Below, in pieces: positions 3,010 to 15,128 of a DNA stretch of 16,656 bases (its first letter is position 1; every line of letters begins with the position of its first letter). The translations under genes were made by a program, and so were the position numbers. Origin of the DNA: an uncultured Candidatus Bathyarchaeia archaeon (lineage in GTDB: Archaea; Thermoproteota; Bathyarchaeia; Bathyarchaeales; Bathycorpusculaceae). Location: positions 1 through 16,656 of the forward strand of contig CAYVGZ010000029.1 of NCBI GenBank assembly GCA_964450845.1, given 5' to 3'. The notes below the pieces were generated by a model that did not search any database, was not told the origin of the DNA, and saw only the letters and a list, made by a program, of their open reading frames with translations.

Positions 3010-3798
3010 TTGAAGAGGATAATTGTTTGCCTTAAACAGGCTGTTGATGTGTCACAGCTAAGGGTGGATTCTGCGACAAGGCAGCTTTTGGTAGCCAGTG
3101 CACCTAGAAAGATGAGTGATTTTGACAAGAATGCTTTGGAAGAAGCTATAAGGGTTAAGGAGAAGCTGGGCGATGTTGAAATATTCACATTAACAGTAAC
3201 GTCAGAAGATGCCAAGGCTGTTGTGCGAGAAGCACTTGCGATGGGCGCTGACAAAGCGTATGTTGTCTATGATTCAAGCCTTAAGGATATTGACACTTTG
3301 AGCACAGCTCACATTCTAGCGGAAGCAATTAAAAAAATTGGCGGGTTTGATTTGGTTCTTTGCGGTGAAACGTCTTTAGATAGTTTTTCGGGGCTTGTTG
3401 GTTCAAGATTGGCTGAGTTGCTTAATTTGCCGCAGATAAGTTCTGTGAGGAAGCTTTCTGTTGAAGGCGATGCTGTCGTTGCGGAGCGTGCGCTTGAGGA
3501 GGCTGTTGAAACTGTAAAGGCGAAAATGCCAGTTTTGATGATGGTTACTCGTGAGATTAATCAGCCGAGGATTCCTTCGCTTATGATGATTATGAAGGCT
3601 TCTAAAAAGGAGATAGTCACGTGGACGGTTGCTGATTTGGGCGTTCAGAAGGATAAGCTTGGTTCAAAGATTGAGGTGATTGAGGTTTTGGCGCCTAAAA
3701 CGGAGCGTAAGAAAATAAGGATTACTGGTGAGAGTGTGCAGGAGATTGCGGATAAGTTGGCTAGGGCGTTGATTGAGGAAGGTGTTGTGGGAAGGTGA
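3010..3798 (+). CDS. etfB: Electron transfer flavoprotein beta subunit (EtfB/FixA family)
   Basis: IIVCLKQ, DKNALEEA, REALAMGADKA, DLVLCGE, G.VGSRLAELLNLP, INQPRIPS. TTG start. Directly followed by etfA. Confidence 0.95.
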   Translation: MKRIIVCLKQAVDVSQLRVDSATRQLLVASAPRKMSDFDKNALEEAIRVKEKLGDVEIFTLTVTSEDAKAVVREALAMGADKAYVVYDSSLKDIDTLSTAHILAEAIKKIGGFDLVLCGETSLDSFSGLVGSRLAELLNLPQISSVRKLSVEGDAVVAERALEEAVETVKAKMPVLMMVTREINQPRIPSLMMIMKASKKEIVTWTVADLGVQKDKLGSKIEVIEVLAPKTERKKIRITGESVQEIADKLARALIEEGVVGR

Positions 3799-3805
3799 AG
3801 GTGGC

Positions 3806-4771
3806 ATGAGTGAACATGAGGGAGTTATGGTTTTTTCAGAGAAGTATGATTTGATGTTGGAGATGCTTGGGAAGGGACGGGAAATTGCGGATGAACTGCA
3901 CACGAGTTTGGCGGCTGTTTTGGTTGGGTTTAATGTGCAGGGAAAGGCGGATGAACTGATAAAGTGTGGGGCGGATAAGGTTTATCTTGTTGATGATCAG
4001 GCTTTGGAGCATTTTCAGATAGAGGCTTACCTAAGCGTTTTGCATAATTTAGCAGTGAGTTACAAGCCAGAAATCATTTTGATTGGTTCGACGAGGAATG
4101 GGAAGCCGCTTGCTGCGAGGCTTGCAACTCGGCTTGAAGCTGGATGCGTTCCAGACTGCAACAGATTGAGCGTTGACGAAAAGAGAAGGCTGGTTGGCGA
4201 GAGAATAACTTATGGTGGAAATGCTACGGCAAAAATAGCTTTCACAGCTAAACCGCAAATAGCAACGGTTCCACAGAGAGCATTTGAAAAACCAGAGCGG
4301 AAAGATCGAAGTGGACAGGTGATAAAGTTGGATGTTAAGATTGAAGAGCCGAAAACTGAGATTGTTGAAACTAAACCGCTTAAAGTTTCAAGCGTTAGGA
4401 TTGAAGATGCTGAAGTAATAATTAGTTGTGGAAGAGGCTTGGGAAAGAAGGAAGACAAAGTTTTGTTGGACGAGTTGGCGACGGTTTTGTGTGGACAGGT
4501 TGGATGTTCGAGACCTTTGGCTGAGGATAGGAAGTGGTTTACGGAGTGGGTCGGGTTGTCTGGGCATAAGGTGAAGCCAAAATTGTATATTGCTTGTGGG
4601 ATTTCGGGTGTGATTCAGCATGTGGCTGGGATTCGTGATGCGAAAGTGATTGTGGCGATTAACAAAGATGAGAATGCACCGATTTTTGAGGTTGCAGATT
4701 ATGGGGTTGTTGGCAACTTGTATGAGATATTGCCAGCGTTGAAAGAAGCGTTAAAGAATCAACTTGAATAG
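3806..4771 (+). CDS. etfA: Electron transfer flavoprotein alpha subunit (EtfA/FixB family), 321 aa
   Basis: GADKVY, RLATRLEAGCVPDC, IEDAEVIISCGRG, GCSRP, VGLSG..VKPKLYIACGISGVIQH..GI, IVAINKDENAPIF..ADYGVVG. Start placed at ATG 3806, after AGGTGG and just past the etfB stop, rather than at the track's 3773. Confidence 0.95.
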   Translation: MSEHEGVMVFSEKYDLMLEMLGKGREIADELHTSLAAVLVGFNVQGKADELIKCGADKVYLVDDQALEHFQIEAYLSVLHNLAVSYKPEIILIGSTRNGKPLAARLATRLEAGCVPDCNRLSVDEKRRLVGERITYGGNATAKIAFTAKPQIATVPQRAFEKPERKDRSGQVIKLDVKIEEPKTEIVETKPLKVSSVRIEDAEVIISCGRGLGKKEDKVLLDELATVLCGQVGCSRPLAEDRKWFTEWVGLSGHKVKPKLYIACGISGVIQHVAGIRDAKVIVAINKDENAPIFEVADYGVVGNLYEILPALKEALKNQLE

Positions 4772-7997: not shown

Positions 7998-9215
7998 TCA
8001 TTTGTATGGTATAAAGTCCTTTCCTAGCAGTTCTCTTGCTATGACTATTCTCTGAATGTTTGTTGCTCCTTCCGCTCCAACACAATAGCTCATTATGCCC
8101 CTCAATCCCATTTCTAATGGACACTCTTTCGTGTAACCATACGCACCCAACCAAATCATTGCATGTTTATACACGTCAAACGCAAAGTGCGGTGCAATAA
8201 GCTTGCAAGTGGCAATCATGCGGCTAACTTCTAATGGCGTAAACTTGTTTTCTTTGTAACGTTTGTCTTGCATCCACGCCGTGCGATAGACAAGCGAACG
8301 CAAAGCCTGCAAATGCGCCCAATCATCAGCCAATTCAAACTGTATGCCCTCAAACTTGCCAATTGGTCTGCCAAACGCTTTCCGCTCCTTAATGTAATCC
8401 ATACCGATTTCAAGCGCACGCTGAGCCGCTCCCACGCAAACAGCAGCAATCAAAATCCGCGCATTATCAAACCCTTCCATAGTCAAATAAAAGCCCTTAT
8501 CAACCTCGCCAATACGATAGGAATCTGGCACTTGCACGTCTTTCATCATGAAACCGCCAGTAGAAATCGCCATCCTACCCATATCCTCAAACCGCTTGCT
8601 AATCTCAACGCCCGGAGCATCCATGGGCAAATAGAAACCAGTCATTCCTCGATACATAGCTTCTGGCGGCGCAGGCGAAGTACGGGCTACAACGAAGTAG
8701 CCTCCGCCAAGTTTTTTCGCTTCTTCAGTTCCACTAATGTACATTTTCTCGCCATCAAGAACCCAGCCGTTTCCGTCTCTCCGCGCCGTAGACTTAAAAG
8801 CGGCAACATCCGAGCCACCGCCACTTTCTGTGGAAGCAATACCTATGAACGAGTCGCCCTTGATAGCCTTTCGAATAACAGCCTCACGCACTTGTTCACT
8901 ACAATAGCGGTCAACAACAAAACCCCAAGATGATTCAACAAGCCAAAACACAGGTACGGCAATACTTACATCAGCATAGCCAAGTTCTTCAGCGGCAATA
9001 CATGCCGTAACCCAATCAGCACCAGTTCCACCATGCTCTTGAGGAGCCGTCATAATAAGCAGTCCCATGCCAGCCATGCTCTTCAAAATCTCATTAGGAA
9101 TCTCACCTTTACTGTCCATCTCCCTAATCTTCTCCAAAGGCAAATTCTTCTGGCACCATTCCCGCAGTGCATTGCGGAAAAGCTCTTGCTCTTCAGTGAA
9201 AGAGAAATCAACCAT
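7998..9215 (-). CDS. acd: Acyl-CoA dehydrogenase
   Basis: FSFTEEQELFR, IASTESGGGSDV, LDGEKMYISG, GFDNARILIAA..VG.AQ.AL, Y..ER.AFGRPI..FEG, GAYGY..E, C-terminal GAEGATNIQRIVIAR. SD AAGGTGA 6 nt upstream. Confidence 0.96.
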   Translation of the reverse strand: MVDFSFTEEQELFRNALREWCQKNLPLEKIREMDSKGEIPNEILKSMAGMGLLIMTAPQEHGGTGADWVTACIAAEELGYADVSIAVPVFWLVESSWGFVVDRYCSEQVREAVIRKAIKGDSFIGIASTESGGGSDVAAFKSTARRDGNGWVLDGEKMYISGTEEAKKLGGGYFVVARTSPAPPEAMYRGMTGFYLPMDAPGVEISKRFEDMGRMAISTGGFMMKDVQVPDSYRIGEVDKGFYLTMEGFDNARILIAAVCVGAAQRALEIGMDYIKERKAFGRPIGKFEGIQFELADDWAHLQALRSLVYRTAWMQDKRYKENKFTPLEVSRMIATCKLIAPHFAFDVYKHAMIWLGAYGYTKECPLEMGLRGIMSYCVGAEGATNIQRIVIARELLGKDFIPYK

Positions 9216-9340: not shown

Positions 9341-9571
9341 TCAATGTGTAGTAATGAACCATGTGCAACGTTTTTTCCTTTCCATGCATCCAAGCTTTAA
9401 TTTGCTCTCGCCATGTTTGGCCTCACTGTACCAGCCGAAGAGAGGACACATGACCCAAGTAGATTCATCATCGTACTTGATGACTTTGACATTGTGGACA
9501 ACATGGTTGGTGCATGTAAACTTTCTTACTCCAACAATTTTCGGTTTCTGTATAGTTTCTAGTTGGGTCAT
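9341..9571 (-). CDS. Small hypothetical Cys/His-containing protein, 76 aa
   Basis: MTQLETIQKPKIVGVRKFTCTNHVVHNVKVIKYDDESTWVMCPLFGWYSEAKHGESKLKLGCMERKKRCTWFITTH. Co-oriented with hdr and acd and preceded by TATA elements. The track's longer 9727 start reads through the AT-rich promoter and looks spurious. Confidence 0.6.
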   Translation of the reverse strand: MTQLETIQKPKIVGVRKFTCTNHVVHNVKVIKYDDESTWVMCPLFGWYSEAKHGESKLKLGCMERKKRCTWFITTH

Positions 9572-9757: not shown

Positions 9758-10633
9758 CTAAGTCGGAATTCGCGCCAGAAATTGATCGACTGGACTTTGA
9801 TTAAGATGAAGACCAAGTCTTTTTTGTTCAATGCTCAGAGACAAACCAAGCAGTTGCGTGTAGTATAGAACTGGAAGATTGAGCTTCACTCCAACAGTTG
9901 CTTCCGCATCCTTCTGTTTGAAGTCAAACATTAAACCACAATCTGGACAAGAAACAACTAAACCGCCCACCATCAGATTCTGCAAGGCATTTATCTTGGT
10001 GCCGACCAACGAAAGCGCAGAGTCAGGGTGACTATACATCAAGTTTGCCCCGCAACAGTCCAGCTTTTCAGCGTAATCCACAGTTTCTGCTCCAAGAGCA
10101 CGTACTAATTCATCGAGTTTTTTTGGATTTTCGGCATCATCAACTCTTCCAAGGTCGCTGTAACGAATAATCTGGCAACCGACATGAGTTGCTAACTTCA
10201 AATCCCAAAGAGGTTTCCGGACCGCCTTTTTAATCCTGTCCAAGCCAACAAAGTCGTGCAGAAAATCGATTGTGTGCCAAACTTTGACGCCTGAGTTATA
10301 TTCTAATCCTTCCTCCTTCAACAAGCATGTGATTTTTTGGTTGATTTTTCCATTCTTCTCCATAAGATATTTTAACTCAGAAATCACGAAATGGCAACGA
10401 TTACAAGGAACAAGAAGATTATCTAAACCAGTTGTGTTTGCTATGGCTAGAACCCTTGCAGCCAGATAGTTTGCCGCCAAATCGTTCATGCTTTTGGCTG
10501 GGTCTCCGCAACAATTGACTTCAGGCAGGTCTACAAGCTCCACATCCAATTTTGGAAAAGCTTCGCGAACTGACATTTCATAAGCGTATTGACTTGTTAA
10601 TATTCGGCAACCCCAAAAAACAGCAATCTTCAT
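9758..10633 (-). CDS. hdrB: Heterodisulfide reductase subunit B
   Basis: Two complete CCG domains: C9, C41C42, C77xxC80 and C153, C193C194, C229xxC232. Its ATG abuts the hdrC TAA. Confidence 0.96.
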   Translation of the reverse strand: MKIAVFWGCRILTSQYAYEMSVREAFPKLDVELVDLPEVNCCGDPAKSMNDLAANYLAARVLAIANTTGLDNLLVPCNRCHFVISELKYLMEKNGKINQKITCLLKEEGLEYNSGVKVWHTIDFLHDFVGLDRIKKAVRKPLWDLKLATHVGCQIIRYSDLGRVDDAENPKKLDELVRALGAETVDYAEKLDCCGANLMYSHPDSALSLVGTKINALQNLMVGGLVVSCPDCGLMFDFKQKDAEATVGVKLNLPVLYYTQLLGLSLSIEQKRLGLHLNQSPVDQFLARIPT

Positions 10634-11143
10634 TTACCGTTCCTCCATAGCCTTCATAAACGTGGCTTGAAAACTTTCTTTTGGACGAATGATTCTCGGC
10701 AGTTTCAAGCTTTCACGATCAAGCGTTTCCATTTTTTTAGTGACAACTTTCTGAACGGATTCCGCTAATCCAGTTTCGATAATCTGTGAAACAGCTTTCA
10801 AGTAGCCCTCAGGAACCCTCGCTTCCCTTTCAACAGCAAGATTCCTCAGAGCCATTATAACATGATAGGGTGAAGCCTTCTGCGGACACCTCTGCAAACA
10901 TTTCAAACATGTTGCACAAGTCCAAATGATGTCAGACGATGCCAACTCATCAACAAAACCCAAGTTAACAAGTTTCACTATTTCATGAGGCTTCAACTCT
11001 AGAAGCTTCAGAGCTGTGCATCCGCTTGTGCATTTTACACATTGAAAACAGTTGACAAGTTCCTTTTCGACCAGCTTTGCCAAAATCTTTTCTCTCGATT
11101 CTAGGTTAGGCTTAGCCATTGACATCAGGTCTGTTAGACTCAT
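10634..11143 (-). CDS. hdrC: Heterodisulfide reductase subunit C
   Basis: Two 4Fe-4S motifs, CFQCVKCTSGC and IWTCATCLKCLQRCP, then ALRN.A. SD GGAGG lies in the last codons of hdrA. Confidence 0.95.
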   Translation of the reverse strand: MSLTDLMSMAKPNLESREKILAKLVEKELVNCFQCVKCTSGCTALKLLELKPHEIVKLVNLGFVDELASSDIIWTCATCLKCLQRCPQKASPYHVIMALRNLAVEREARVPEGYLKAVSQIIETGLAESVQKVVTKKMETLDRESLKLPRIIRPKESFQATFMKAMEER

Positions 11144-11145
11144 GT

Positions 11146-14100
11146 TCAGCTGCCTCCTTTTGCACTTGGTTCAATGCATGCTGCTTGAATTTGAGCCAAA
11201 ACTTGCTCATCACTGTAATGTTTCATTTTGATGGCTTTAGTCGGACAAACTGAAACGCACATGCCGCAGCCTTGACACATGGCTTCTACAACTTCGGCTT
11301 TATACTTTTCAATTCCTTTTTCGCTTTGCGTTTTTATTTCTATGGCAAGGAATGGACAGAGGGATTCACAAACTCGGCAGCCGCTACACAAATCTTCGTC
11401 AACAATGGCTTTCAGAGGCTCAAGCTCAATTTCTCCGCTTGCCAACAAATCTATGGCTTTTGCTGCTGCTCCGCTCGCCTGAGCGACGGTGTCAGGAATA
11501 TCTTTCGGTCCTTGACATGTACCCGCAAGAAAGATGCCACCTATCGCACTCTCAAGTGGTCGCAACTTCGGGTGCGCTTCCAATAAGAAACCGTCGGCAC
11601 TTCTCGAAACATGAAACAGCGTGCTGGTTTCGCCGAGGTCACTGTTTGGAACAAGCCCATTAGCCAGAACAACTAGATCGGATCGCAGTTCAAGAAGCTT
11701 ATTCGTGCCTTTATCGTAAACATCGAAACGAAGTGAACGATTAGCATCTAAGCGAATATCGGAAGGCAACCCCACAATGAAGTTTATATCCATATCTTTT
11801 GCCCGTCGGTAGAATTCTTCATAGCCTTTACCGAAAGCTCGCATATCATTAAAGCATACATAAATCTCCACATCTTTTCCAAGTTTCTCTCGTGCCAGAA
11901 TCGCCTGTTTCAGCGTTGCCATGCATCCTATTCGGCAACAATATTCATGAAACCTTTTGTCTCGTGATCCTACACATTGGATGAAAACTGCACTTTTTGG
12001 TGATTTTCCATCTTCTGGACAAAGAATTTTTCCGCCAGTTGCGCCAGACGCACTGCACAGTCTTTCAAATTGAAGATTCGTAATTATGTTCTTCGATTTG
12101 CCGAAACCAAATTCAGGGATATTCGTAGCGTCAAACAATTCACTACCAGTTGCTATTATTACTCCTCCAACTTTAACTGTCATCCTTTGAAAACCCTGCT
12201 CGTGATTGATTGCCTTTGCTTCGCATATTTTTTCGCATTCCAAGCATTCGCAACAGCCACCGCAGGCAAGGCAACGTTTCGCTTCTGCGATAGCCATTTC
12301 CTCAGTAAAGCCAAGCTCAACTTCCTCAAAACTTCGAATCCTACTTTCAACTGGCAACGTTGGCATTACTTGTCTATTCTTCTTTTTAATGTCTTCCCTT
12401 GGCTTTGTCTGAACTGGAGTAAGTTCTTCCCTGCCCAAAGTTTTCAATTTTATTCCCTGTAGATATTGGTGAATAGAAAAGGCTGCTCTTTTTCCGTCAG
12501 CAATAGCTTCGACGACCGTTGCTGGACCTAATACTGCATCTCCGCCCGCAAATACTTGTGGTATACTTGTTTGAAGCGTGACTGGGTCGACGCCTACAGT
12601 AGCGTGGCTCACATTTATTCCCTCAGGCAGAAAGGCAGTGTCAACGACCTGACCGATTGCAGGAACCACAGTATCTGCTTCAATAATGTGTTCTGACCCT
12701 TCGATTGGCACAGGTTTTCTTCTTCCTGTTTCGTCGGGTTCTGTGAGGCTCATCTGAAGGCATTCAATTGCAGTAACTTTCTCATTTTCGCCAATAATTC
12801 TCCTCGGAGCTTTGAGAAACAAAAATTCGATGCCCTCCTTTTCAGCTTGCTCGACTTCAGGTTGAAAAGCGGGCATTTCCTCCTTTGATCTTCTATATAT
12901 GACGCATACTTTCTTGGCGCCAAGTCGAAGCGCAGTTCTTGAAACATCTATCGCAACATTTCCGCCTCCGATGACAGCAACTCGGTTGCCAATTGCAACC
13001 TTTTTTCCCGAGTTCACGTCTCTTAAGAAATCAATAGCCTGAACGACTCCTTGTAGTTGCTCTCCCTCAATTCCCATCTTTAGGCTCTTCCAAGCACCAA
13101 TCGCAAGAAATATCGCCTTATACCCAGTCTTCTTCAAGCTTTCCATTGTCACAGTGTCGCCAAAAGTAACATTTGTGCGAATTTCAACACCTAAATCCTT
13201 CAAATACTGAATTTCTCTCGCCAAGATTTCTTTAGAAAGTCTATAAGTAGGTATACCAAACCTAAGCATTCCACCTGGTTCTGGGAGTGCCTCAAAAACC
13301 GTTACAGGGTAGCCCAATTTCACCAGCTCGTACGCTGCAGCAAGCCCGGCTGGACCAGAACCTATTATTGCGATTTTTTTTCTATATTTCTGAGGACACT
13401 TTGCGGGTTTTTCTTTTGATTGTTTCATCTGATTATCGGCTATAAAACGTTTAAGGGCGCATATGGCTATCGGTTCTTCAACTTCGCCCCTTTCGCACTC
13501 ATTTTCGCACGGATGGAAACAAACTCTCCCTAACACAGCAGGGAGGGGAACAGATTTCTGGATTAGTTCATAGGCTTCCTTGAACTTTCCTTCCGCTATT
13601 AGAGCTAGATATCCTTGCACATTCACGCCAGCAGGGCAAGTGGCAGTACATCTGGGAACACCCTTCTTGTCGATGGTGTAAACATTTGGACACGCTTGCG
13701 GAAATGGTCTATAAATCGCATTTCTTGTCCCAAGTCCCAACTCAAACTCGTTGACAAGAATAATTGGACATACTTTTGCGCATTCACCACATCCAGTGCA
13801 TTTTGTCTCGTCAACATACCGGGGGTTCTTTAGTATCGTGACCTCGTAGTTGCCAACGTAGCCTGTAACGTTTTCCACTTCTGCGTAAGTTACCAATTTT
13901 ATGCTCGGGTGCCTTGCTACTTCAGTCATTTTTGGCGTTAGTATGCAAGCGCTGCAGTCAAGAGTTGGAAAGGTCTTGTCTAATAGTGCCATTTTTCCAC
14001 CTATGCTCGGTGATTTTTCAACTAGAATAACATTCAAACCCGCATTGGCCAAATCAAGTGAAGCTTGTATACCAGCAATTCCGCCGCCAACTACCAAAAC

Positions 14101-14529
14101 GCTTCTCTCGGCTGGCACCTTGATTCTTTCTAAAGGCTCCAGAAGTTTGGCTCGAGCTACACCCATTCTCACGAGGTCTTTAGCTTTTTCCGTGGCTTTT
14201 TCAGGTTCCTCACTGTGAACCCATGAAACATGTTCTCTCAAATTGACAATCTCAAGCAAGTAAGGATTTAAACCAGCGTCAGCAACTGTTCTCCGAAAAG
14301 TTTCTTCATGCATCCTAGGCGAACATGTTGCAATAACTACTCTGTCAAGGTTATGAGACTTAATGTCATCTTGAATCATGCGTTGCCCAGGCTCAGAGCA
14401 CATGTAAGTATAGTTTCTGGCTATCGCAACATCCGGCAAGTGCTTAGCATACTCTGTGACCTTCTCTACATCAACGACGCCGCCGATGTTTAAGCCACAA
14501 TGACAAACGTAAACACCCACTTTAGGCAT
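11146..14529 (-). CDS. hdrA: Heterodisulfide reductase subunit A with an inserted GltD/NfnB-like NAD(P)H-flavin module (HdrL-like), 1127 aa
   Basis: HdrA core: VYVCHCG, MCS, ATCSP, VVGGGIAG, FPTLDCSACIL, FIQCVGSRD, YCCRIGCM..LK, QGPKDI and two C-terminal ferredoxin motifs. Residues ~290-757 form a GltD-like block: CPA.V.V.GY, LGRVCFHPCENEC, IIGSGPAG, LRFGIP.YRL, VIGGGNVAID, YRRS, FAGGD, EA.RC. Confidence 0.95.
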   Translation of the reverse strand: MPKVGVYVCHCGLNIGGVVDVEKVTEYAKHLPDVAIARNYTYMCSEPGQRMIQDDIKSHNLDRVVIATCSPRMHEETFRRTVADAGLNPYLLEIVNLREHVSWVHSEEPEKATEKAKDLVRMGVARAKLLEPLERIKVPAERSVLVVGGGIAGIQASLDLANAGLNVILVEKSPSIGGKMALLDKTFPTLDCSACILTPKMTEVARHPSIKLVTYAEVENVTGYVGNYEVTILKNPRYVDETKCTGCGECAKVCPIILVNEFELGLGTRNAIYRPFPQACPNVYTIDKKGVPRCTATCPAGVNVQGYLALIAEGKFKEAYELIQKSVPLPAVLGRVCFHPCENECERGEVEEPIAICALKRFIADNQMKQSKEKPAKCPQKYRKKIAIIGSGPAGLAAAYELVKLGYPVTVFEALPEPGGMLRFGIPTYRLSKEILAREIQYLKDLGVEIRTNVTFGDTVTMESLKKTGYKAIFLAIGAWKSLKMGIEGEQLQGVVQAIDFLRDVNSGKKVAIGNRVAVIGGGNVAIDVSRTALRLGAKKVCVIYRRSKEEMPAFQPEVEQAEKEGIEFLFLKAPRRIIGENEKVTAIECLQMSLTEPDETGRRKPVPIEGSEHIIEADTVVPAIGQVVDTAFLPEGINVSHATVGVDPVTLQTSIPQVFAGGDAVLGPATVVEAIADGKRAAFSIHQYLQGIKLKTLGREELTPVQTKPREDIKKKNRQVMPTLPVESRIRSFEEVELGFTEEMAIAEAKRCLACGGCCECLECEKICEAKAINHEQGFQRMTVKVGGVIIATGSELFDATNIPEFGFGKSKNIITNLQFERLCSASGATGGKILCPEDGKSPKSAVFIQCVGSRDKRFHEYCCRIGCMATLKQAILAREKLGKDVEIYVCFNDMRAFGKGYEEFYRRAKDMDINFIVGLPSDIRLDANRSLRFDVYDKGTNKLLELRSDLVVLANGLVPNSDLGETSTLFHVSRSADGFLLEAHPKLRPLESAIGGIFLAGTCQGPKDIPDTVAQASGAAAKAIDLLASGEIELEPLKAIVDEDLCSGCRVCESLCPFLAIEIKTQSEKGIEKYKAEVVEAMCQGCGMCVSVCPTKAIKMKHYSDEQVLAQIQAACIEPSAKGGS

Positions 14530-14575
14530 CTACAAGCCCCATCTGGAAAAATTTATCAAATGCCGCTCTTTATTA

Positions 14576-14593
14576 TTCCTAACGGTTTAGGAA
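14576..14593. promoter_or_regulatory. 7-4-7 inverted repeat upstream of hdrA
   Basis: TTCCTAA-CGGT-TTAGGAA, 47-64 nt upstream of the hdrA ATG, next to a TATA-like TAATAAAG on the minus strand. Confidence 0.45.
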
Positions 14594-14661
14594 ACCAAAA
14601 TTACAATATCAATTACAACGATTTTCTGCCAGATCCTCACCTTACATCTTCAATTGTTACT

Positions 14662-14850
14662 TTAATAGACTGAAACTTTAGCCACTCCATTTATCTTCAG
14701 AAACTCTGGAATTAATTCTCCAGGAATCTTTTTCTCAGCAATCAACGTGAGCTTCGGCTCTGGCGATAATTCGGAATCATCGACAATCGCTTGCTTTATA
14801 CTCAAGCCGTTTTTGGTAGTGATCATAAAGGAGTGCCAAATTATCCACTA
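14662..14850 (-). pseudogene. C-terminal fragment of an archaeal ACT-domain amino-acid-metabolism regulator (COG2150-like)
   Basis: Minus frame 14826->14662 reads MITTKNGLSIKQAIVDDSELSPEPKLTLIAEKKIPGELIPEFLKINGVAKVSVY*. From memory this matches the C-terminus of that family. An in-frame TAG lies 8 codons upstream of the ATG, there is no SD, and no N-terminal part is in frame. Confidence 0.7.
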
Positions 14851-15061
14851 AAGAGTGGCTAGAGGAAATATCAAAAGTTTCTGACAAAAAGAGATGAACG
14901 AGTCTCTAAACAGAATTAAGAACTTAGAAAATGACTTTTCGACATTTTAGAGTTTGTTAACACCAAATAATCAGATATGTAAAGAAACCACAAAAAAGAA
15001 GTTATTACCAAACCTTGCAAGAACTTCTGTGCCATGAAACCACTTGTTTTTCAGCTTAAGG

Positions 15062-15069
15062 TTTATATT
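15062..15069 (+). promoter_or_regulatory. TATA box of the COG2403 gene
   Basis: TTTATATT about 60 nt before ATG 15129, with a GGTGGGG SD-like element in between. Confidence 0.5.
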
Positions 15070-15128
15070 GAATGAATTAAGTAGTATTGAAGCTCGCTCA
15101 ATTGAGGTTTTGGTGGGGAATCGACATA

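Follow-up and report, generated by a model that had tools for sequence, protein, structure and literature searches.

Proteins in which HdrA is fused to glutamate-synthase-type domains were named HdrL in 2009 (PMC2702500). An insertion of ~500 amino acids (aa) resembling NfnB was reported by Chadwick et al. in 2022 within the inserted ferredoxin of HdrA9-11 from anaerobic methanotrophic (ANME-1) archaea, along with the notion that bifurcation might occur at two sites (PMC9012536). In 2025, HdrA proteins with an inserted GltD domain were described as 'type III HdrA', comprising classes A9 and A10, the latter found in Bathyarchaeota and derived from HdrA1; nine sequences were counted, and reduced nicotinamide adenine dinucleotide or its phosphate (NAD(P)H) was proposed as electron donor or acceptor (PMC12054007). 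Type III HdrA and the ANME-1 HdrA9-11 are the same kind of protein. The sole assayed GltD-bearing HdrA that we found is a much larger Moorella protein, which oxidises NADH (PMC9430772). Here we analyse a stretch of 16,656 nucleotides from an uncultured Candidatus Bathyarchaeia archaeon (contig CAYVGZ010000029.1; hereafter the window), in which an hdrA-hdrC-hdrB operon encodes an HdrA of this kind. A sequence-only reading of the gene had described an HdrA with a complete GltD/NfnB-like NAD(P)H-flavin module spliced into its ferredoxin domain, and had placed it in a known architecture class. That class is indeed known, from HdrL, and the architecture is real, conserved and already published. What the locus adds is a minimal hdrACB context in a genome without an McrA match, evidence that the inserted cassette is of the StnC/NfnA type, a motif-based case for NADPH, and a distribution that is patchy but wider than the nine sequences of PMC12054007.

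Results

An NAD(P)H-flavin cassette divides the inserted ferredoxin

The hdrA gene translates as one stop-free open reading frame (ORF) of 1127 aa (Table 1). Its N part is collinear with HdrA of the methanogen complex 5ODC (residues 2-295 against 4-297 of 5odc_A) as far as the residues YTIDK (aa 284-288), and its C part with 8rvu_a (residues 13-379 against 300-659). Collinearity is picked up again at C759, which in the 5ODC and 8RVU alignments matches the cysteine that opens the inserted ferredoxin's second motif; the insert therefore spans aa ~290-758 and lies between the two cysteine motifs of one 2x[4Fe-4S] ferredoxin, that is, between C254 and C759. The expectation values of the PDB alignments, 1e-100 to 1e-220, are far beyond chance. 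Script-based motif location placed ferredoxin motif 1 (CTGCGECAKVC) at aa 244-254 and motif 2 (CCECLECEKIC) at aa 759-769; the cassette between them carries an FAD (flavin adenine dinucleotide) motif, GSGPAG, at aa 390-395, an NAD(P)H motif, GGGNVA, at aa 521-526 and YRRS at aa 545-548. The split ferredoxin, its motifs and the GltD-type insert all lie where the sequence-only reading had put them, although the lower window boundary of the insert is 12256 rather than about 12259. Profile-based domain mapping with Pfam and NCBIfam gave the families that the reading had anticipated, with HdrA matched at aa 3-300 and 751-1116, Fer4_20 at 292-370 and Pyr_redox_2 at 385-679, and the GltD-type family PRK12771 covers aa 288-785 (568.7 bits against a cut-off of 516).

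By sequence and fold, HdrA retains every cofactor site of its own, namely the N-terminal cluster with its trans cysteine, the FAD, the cluster of the thioredoxin-reductase domain, and the clusters of the inserted and C-terminal ferredoxin domains, while the 469-aa cassette adds an FAD, an NAD(P)H site and two [4Fe-4S] clusters. The N part holds GGGIAG (148-153), C192/C195 and C244/247/250/254; the C part holds C759/762/765/769, the remaining FAD domain with E822 and K874, C852/C864/C865/C869, and a C-terminal 2x[4Fe-4S] ferredoxin domain (C1048-C1058 and C1085-C1095). The predicted inventory of the whole chain is two FAD sites, one NAD(P)H site and eight [4Fe-4S] sites, one of them ligated by a lysine, in agreement with the earlier expectation of two FADs and several clusters in one polypeptide. 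Counted along the alignments, C195 corresponds to Cys197 of 5ODC, a ligand given to the N-terminal cluster of the partner protomer (PMC9012536). E822 and K874 correspond to Glu356 and Lys409, the flavin-site residues used as markers of a bifurcating HdrA flavin (PMC6405883, PMC9430772). Both residues had been proposed as candidates for these positions, as had R430 for the flavin arginine of NfnB/NfnL, and all three proved to be true equivalents.

In an alignment of 40 full-length homologues at 53-81% identity, whose named sources are Bathyarchaeia and Dehalococcoidia, all predicted cluster ligands are invariant, including the eight cysteines of the C-terminal ferredoxin domain, as are C195, K360, R430, G521-G523, Y545-R546-R547, E822 and K874. 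An AlphaFold2 model of HdrA (mean predicted local distance difference test score, pLDDT, 77; predicted template-modelling score, pTM, 0.51) was compared with known structures using Foldseek, giving a template-modelling (TM) score of 0.78 to HdrA and of 0.77-0.79 to NfnL/NfnB, with a root-mean-square deviation of 2.4-2.6 Å. In this model the insert thus has the geometry for binding FAD and NAD(P)H whose lack the sequence-only reading had named as grounds for abandoning its interpretation.

The same alignment revealed a shift in a cluster ligand at aa 864-869 (window 11923-11940), where the fourth cysteine of the thioredoxin-reductase-domain [4Fe-4S] cluster changes position with perfect covariation: C865 occurs together with G868 in 27 sequences (CCxxGC, as in the window HdrA), and S865 together with C868 in 13 (CSxxCC, as in the methanogen protein of 8RVU).

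The cassette resembles StnC/NfnA in chain order and ligation

The cassette begins with PRC294-x3-C298P, continues through C337/C341/C345, K360 and R430, and ends in a helix followed by RC753-x2-C756, which directly adjoins ferredoxin motif 2. By homology with NfnB and DPD, C294/C298 and C753/C756 are two halves of one cysteine motif, so that the chain enters and exits the cassette at the same cluster. Its best solved match is NfnA of Caldicellulosiruptor NfnABC (9BOV, 9bov_A; 461 bits), and scores of 455, 405, 347 and 338 bits were obtained against NfnA of Thermococcus sibiricus (Tsi) NfnABC (9N5U, 9n5u_A), StnC of Sporomusa ovata (8OH5, 8oh5_C), T. maritima NfnB (4ylf_B) and P. furiosus NfnL (5jca_L), respectively. 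StnC/NfnA align to the cassette as a single collinear piece (53-528 against 102-576), whereas NfnB/NfnL align in two with HMMER: residues ~6-45, comprising a helix and the first CxxC, match aa 720-756, and residues ~46-470 (46-461 in NfnB itself) match aa 293-692. Judged from these alignments, the cassette is circularly permuted relative to NfnB/NfnL, whose native order, with an N-terminal helix and CxxC ahead of the flavin domains, it does not show. A word search of the paper on Bfu-type enzymes (PMC10482914) did not find this difference in chain order stated.

The cassette also differs from NfnB in a cluster ligand. K360 occupies the non-cysteine ligand position of the FAD-proximal cluster, which is a glutamate in NfnB/NfnL and K170 in StnC, where it is strictly conserved and required for activity (PMC10482914); because all 40 homologues have the lysine, the NfnB-type ligation by three cysteines and a glutamate is absent throughout the alignment. 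R430 corresponds to Arg187 of T. maritima NfnB and Arg201 of P. furiosus NfnL, the arginine at the flavin N5, but it also corresponds to R239 of StnC and is present in Tsi NfnA. Structures and mutants show the FAD of StnC and Tsi NfnA to be a non-bifurcating point of NADPH entry that ends a single cluster chain (PMC10482914, PMC12018979). As these proteins keep the same arginine, R430 is not diagnostic of bifurcation. Identity and score are in themselves weak guides to type, since the percentages are too close (41-47% to the StnC/NfnA type over ~480-520 columns and 43-44% to the NfnL/NfnB type); it is the chain order and the lysine ligand that assign the permuted, Lys-ligated cassette to the StnC/NfnA rather than the NfnB type.

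The likeness to StnC (from S. ovata StnABC) and NfnA (from Bfu-type NfnABC) extends to the PC-x3-CP start, the helix and RCLxCG end, a GGMLR motif and GGGN.A with YRR(S/T), and in both cases the cassette is inserted into a larger Fe-S protein. The hosts are different, being HdrA with HdrBC in the window and a NuoG/HydA-like subunit with bifurcating BfuBC or StnAB in the known enzymes, and Cys114 of StnC is replaced by valine or alanine in the type III homologues. With NfnB/NfnL (4YLF, 5JCA), the cassette shares the FAD and NADPH domains, two [4Fe-4S] clusters and the flavin arginine; the permuted order, the lysine in place of glutamate and the lack of an NfnA/NfnS partner place it outside the family of bifurcating Nfn large subunits. 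Such a partner, with its [2Fe-2S] cluster and second FAD, is absent from the operon; PF10418 has a single match in the genome, on contig 45, next to an NfnB-like gene of its own. The GGGNxA and YRR(S/T) motifs are identical to those of four solved NADPH enzymes and general in the type III family; from this pattern, a GxGxxA fold followed by YRR(S/T), we favour NADPH over NADH as the probable substrate of the cassette.

Two further arrangements of related domains occur in the genome of the window (G000). On contig 12 (locus L002, 1273-3030, reverse strand), a free-standing 585-aa permuted cassette (P0126) with a PPC-x3-CP start and an RCLGC end carries an HdrA-like C-terminal 2x[4Fe-4S] tail. 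An mvhD gene and a tandem HdrA of 1005 aa come after it, and the whole resembles the same wiring in split form, with HdrA fed via MvhD. On contig 6 (locus L003, 1183-2619 and 2624-4108, forward strand; P0127/P0128), an HdrC-like di-cluster N terminus is fused to GltD flavin domains (478 aa), directly 5' of an HdrA with an undivided inserted ferredoxin.

A minimal operon without hydrogenase genes

The start of hdrC lies 2 nt past the stop of hdrA, and hdrB abuts hdrC; HdrC is predicted to bind two clusters and HdrB two of the CCG type. Along with HdrA, whose HdrA2 NCBIfam score of 868 is below the equivalog cut-off of 1100, all three subunits miss the methanogen equivalog cut-offs (Table 1). 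No hydrogenase, MvhD or Fdh gene was found in the operon, and no mvh gene or FlpD/MvhD domain in the window. The genome (1.64 Mb, 93% complete) also encodes several other HdrA paralogues that, unlike the window HdrA, are fused or adjacent to MvhD and stand beside NiFe hydrogenases, and five CCG (HdrB/HdrD-like) proteins. Whole-genome searches of this 93%-complete assembly gave no match to McrA and none to DsrC, and we rejected DsrC as the disulfide substrate on that ground.

Relative to methanogen MvhAGD-HdrABC (5ODC, 8RVU), the window system has a collinear core with all cluster ligands and the equivalents of E356, K409 and the dimer-forming Cys197, together with the two CCG motifs of HdrB and the two clusters of HdrC. 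It differs in having no hydrogenase or MvhD and in bearing an NADPH cassette in the domain through which ferredoxin electrons exit, and the unreached equivalog cut-offs and missing McrA match further set it apart from the methanogen coenzyme B-coenzyme M (CoB-CoM) heterodisulfide reductase. Type III HdrA is closer. The window protein has its four-domain, HdrA1-like core, its GltD insertion site with a GltD/NfnB-like domain of ~470-500 aa interrupting the inserted ferredoxin, and its Glu/Lys flavin residues. The published class A10 cluster, however, includes mvhADG, whereas the window and the relatives examined have hdrA-hdrC-hdrB only; NADH was inferred for type III (PMC12054007), whereas the window cassette has GGGNVA and YRRS as in NADPH enzymes; and the family is much larger than nine sequences.

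Table 1. Positions of hdrA, its parts and neighbouring features in the window
Feature	Position	Strand	Evidence
hdrA, type III, inserted GltD-like cassette (P0001)	11146..14529	-	ORF translation, Pfam/NCBIfam, homologues
HdrA N-terminal domain, first part of thioredoxin-reductase (FAD) domain and ferredoxin motif 1, aa 1-289	13663..14529	-	449.7 bits vs 5odc_A
Ferredoxin motif 1	13768..13800	-	script motif location
Inserted GltD/StnC-type cassette, aa 290-758	12256..13662	-	PDB alignments, Foldseek
Ferredoxin motif 2	12223..12255	-	script motif location
HdrA C part, aa 759-1127	11149..12255	-	362 bits vs 8rvu_a
hdrC-like, 169 aa, two CxxCxxCxxxC motifs (C32-42, C76-86)	10634..11143	-	TIGR03290 75 bits, below cut-off 160
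hdrB-like, 291 aa, two complete CCG domains (C9/41/42/77/80, C153/193/194/229/232)	9758..10633	-	PF02754 two stretches; TIGR03288 196 bits, below cut-off 345
76-aa ORF just 3' of hdrB	9341..9571	-	four conserved Cys; no Pfam match
Acyl-CoA dehydrogenase	7998..9215	-	
EtfB	3010..3798	+	
EtfA	3773..4771	+	
Non-coding gap, 557 bp	14530..15086		

The operon is retained in relatives. In three other Bathyarchaeia loci (L009, L010 and L013; 78%, 63% and 62% identity), the hdrA-hdrC-hdrB trio is kept without mvh, fdh or mvhD, and no mvh gene lies within 7-8 kilobases in L009, L010, L012 and L013. Two loci at ~54% identity, one from Dehalococcoidia (L011) and one on a metagenome contig that shares its sigma-54 neighbourhood (L014), have the order hdrC-hdrB-hdrA. 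There (L011, 11361-15811; L014, 10324-14720), the trio is followed by genes for a sigma-54-type DNA-binding protein, a sensor histidine kinase resembling [FeFe]-hydrogenase and a sigma-54 activator, an arrangement that suggests redox- or H2-sensing control of Hdr.

Other features of the neighbourhood are less widely shared. Just 3' of hdrB, the 76-aa ORF shares 66% identity with an ORF at the same position in L009 but has no conserved counterpart in L013; it may encode a small redox or zinc-ribbon protein peculiar to the lineage, and we did not take it up as a substrate or adaptor because it is conserved in the closest relative only and lacks a Pfam match. An acyl-CoA dehydrogenase gene downstream of hdrACB and nearby EtfBA genes recur in three of five Bathyarchaeia loci (the window, L009 and L013) and are absent near hdrACB in L010, L012 and the bacterial loci. 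Given recurrence limited to those three, we did not count a functional link to hdrACB as part of the system. The window EtfB has no obvious DGDTAQVG motif of the bifurcating type. On its other side, hdrA is separated from a divergent gene for a 456-aa P-loop (CobW/LpxK-like) protein by a non-coding gap that is long for this compact genome.

Homologues are numerous and patchily distributed

Protein searches of NCBI, JGI, ENA and Logan assemblies recovered homologues of 1106-1139 aa with full coverage at 53-94% identity, dozens of them at 53-81%; the closest is also 1127 aa long and 94% identical. Altogether there are >100 collinear homologues from independent assemblies. Longer forms of ~1280-1660 aa come from Thermoplasmatota, Methanomassiliicoccales, Aerophobetes and Deltaproteobacteria. 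A composite junction pattern, comprising ferredoxin motif 1, C-x3-CP, a spacer (~450 aa in short forms and up to ~630 in long ones) and CxxC-x(1-3)-CxxCxxCxxxC, is present in 70/70 short and 47/47 long matches.

The HdrL protein of Desulfobacterium autotrophicum (PMC2702500) and the HdrA of 1487 aa from the Moorella MetFV-HdrABC-MvhD complex (PMC9430772) are likewise HdrA/glutamate-synthase-type fusions, and related forms of ~1460-1660 aa in metagenome-assembled genomes (MAGs) of Deltaproteobacteria, Desulfobacteraceae, Thermoplasmatota and Methanomassiliicoccales share the succession of ferredoxin motif 1, cassette and motif 2. By their descriptions, however, HdrL and the Moorella protein are ~1500 aa long, with a second HdrA-like flavin domain, co-located mvhD and, in some cases, selenocysteine. 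The window HdrA has a single core and no MvhD, and the long forms constitute a separate group. A search for the Moorella HdrA among the long homologues, by the names of their clusters, yielded MAGs of Deltaproteobacteria and Desulfobacteraceae only.

In a sample of 201 Bathyarchaeia species genomes, ~5 have a full-length collinear match (the window's genome, G124, G110, G105 and G064) and one more (G035) has a partial match. The fused gene is found in none of the 26 other sampled genomes of the window's own family, yet copies 78-94% identical are present in public MAGs, a patchiness that suggests patchy inheritance or lateral transfer. Free-standing cassettes of ~585 aa with a C-terminal ferredoxin are commoner than the fused gene in this sample.

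Discussion

We favour, with confidence slightly above even, a hydrogenase-independent, NAD(P)H-linked and bifurcating HdrABC that most likely uses NADPH. In such an enzyme NADPH would pass a hydride to the cassette FAD, which, by analogy with StnC/NfnA, GltD and DPD, would serve as a plain two-electron to one-electron converter. Electrons could then travel by way of the proximal cluster with its lysine ligand and the other cluster of the cassette, next via both inserted-ferredoxin clusters, and finally over the N-terminal cluster to the HdrA FAD. [quoted passage not shown] The disulfide is probably not CoM-S-S-CoB, because no McrA was found in the genome. In canonical Mvh-Hdr the inserted ferredoxin is the exit for ferredoxin electrons, so the two ferredoxin domains would exchange roles in type III HdrA. 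The net reaction would be 2 NADPH + RSSR + Fd(ox) = 2 NADP+ + 2 RSH + Fd(red), where RSSR is the disulfide and Fd ferredoxin. With standard potentials of about -320 mV for NADPH, about -140 mV for heterodisulfide and about -500 mV for ferredoxin, the coupled reaction lies near equilibrium and could therefore run in either direction. NAD(P)H as donor in place of a hydrogenase, which the sequence-only reading had also proposed, fits both the NAD(P)H site and the gene content of the operon. Essentially the same wiring was put forward independently from structure prediction, with the GltD domain blocking the ferredoxin site and NAD(P)H electrons feeding the FAD (PMC12054007).

Several points weigh against this proposal. 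The geometry between domains is uncertain at a pTM of 0.51, and in one relative (L012) hdrA-hdrC stand without an adjacent hdrB. As for the nucleotide, NADH has been argued from a GXGXXG motif (PMC12054007), and NADH is what the GltD-bearing Moorella HdrA oxidises (PMC9430772). For the single-core type, we infer which way electrons flow as well as which nucleotide and which disulfide take part.

Other explanations differ from this one in how many flavins bifurcate, or in whether the protein exists as assembled. A linear, non-bifurcating NAD(P)H:disulfide oxidoreductase is a less likely alternative; in its favour, the operon contains only hdrA, hdrC and hdrB, electron transfer from NAD(P)H to a disulfide is strongly exergonic alone, and non-bifurcating HdrA complexes exist (PMC9430772). 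It nevertheless leaves unexplained why the bifurcation markers E822 and K874 (PMC9430772), the trans-ligand C195 and the eight C-terminal ferredoxin cysteines should all be invariant in 40 sequences, and this invariance argues that a third branch is under selection. That the unusual length of the protein reflects a chimeric join of hdrA with a gltD-like gene has a negligible chance of being correct: length is its sole recommendation, the frame is uninterrupted, and the junctions fall inside conserved cysteine motifs that recur in every short and long match. We rejected misassembly, which the earlier reading had foreseen as a reason to discard the fusion, as refuted by collinear homologues from so many independent assemblies.

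At the opposite extreme, both flavins in the chain might bifurcate, the cassette FAD acting like the L-FAD of NfnL in addition to the HdrA FAD. The sequence-only reading had entertained two distinct bifurcating flavins, and the same possibility was raised by Chadwick et al. for ANME-1 HdrA9-11 (PMC9012536). R430 does align with the N5-contacting arginine of NfnB/NfnL, and the flavin domains are close to theirs in both identity and superposition. Set against this, the arginine is equally at home in non-bifurcating StnC and Tsi NfnA (PMC10482914, PMC12018979), the proximal ligand is the invariant lysine of StnC and not the glutamate of NfnB, the only NfnS/NfnA-type gene with [2Fe-2S] and FAD lies beside an NfnB of its own on contig 45, and a single cluster chain is predicted to lead out of the cassette FAD. 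Double bifurcation would require a second acceptor near that flavin, such as a cluster of the partner protomer in an HdrA dimer. We regard two bifurcating flavins as very improbable here, and as marginally less probable still a double-bifurcating single polypeptide that steps NADPH electrons to very low potential in a host genome without an McrA match. That the cassette is of the StnC/NfnA type also counts against the second bifurcation site suggested in the literature, and it shows that Bfu and Hdr, two bifurcating machines unrelated to each other, took up the same insertable NADPH cassette.

Compared with the ANME-1 or HdrL versions, the minimal hdrACB operon offers a simpler target for the first biochemistry and cryogenic electron microscopy of a type III HdrA. 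If the wiring proposed here is correct, Bathyarchaeia without an McrA match and some bacteria possess a self-contained enzyme of three subunits, in which NADPH and a thiol/disulfide couple would generate or use up low-potential ferredoxin with no need of hydrogen, formate or coenzyme F420. Such a capacity would bear on how acetogens and fermenters conserve energy in sediments.

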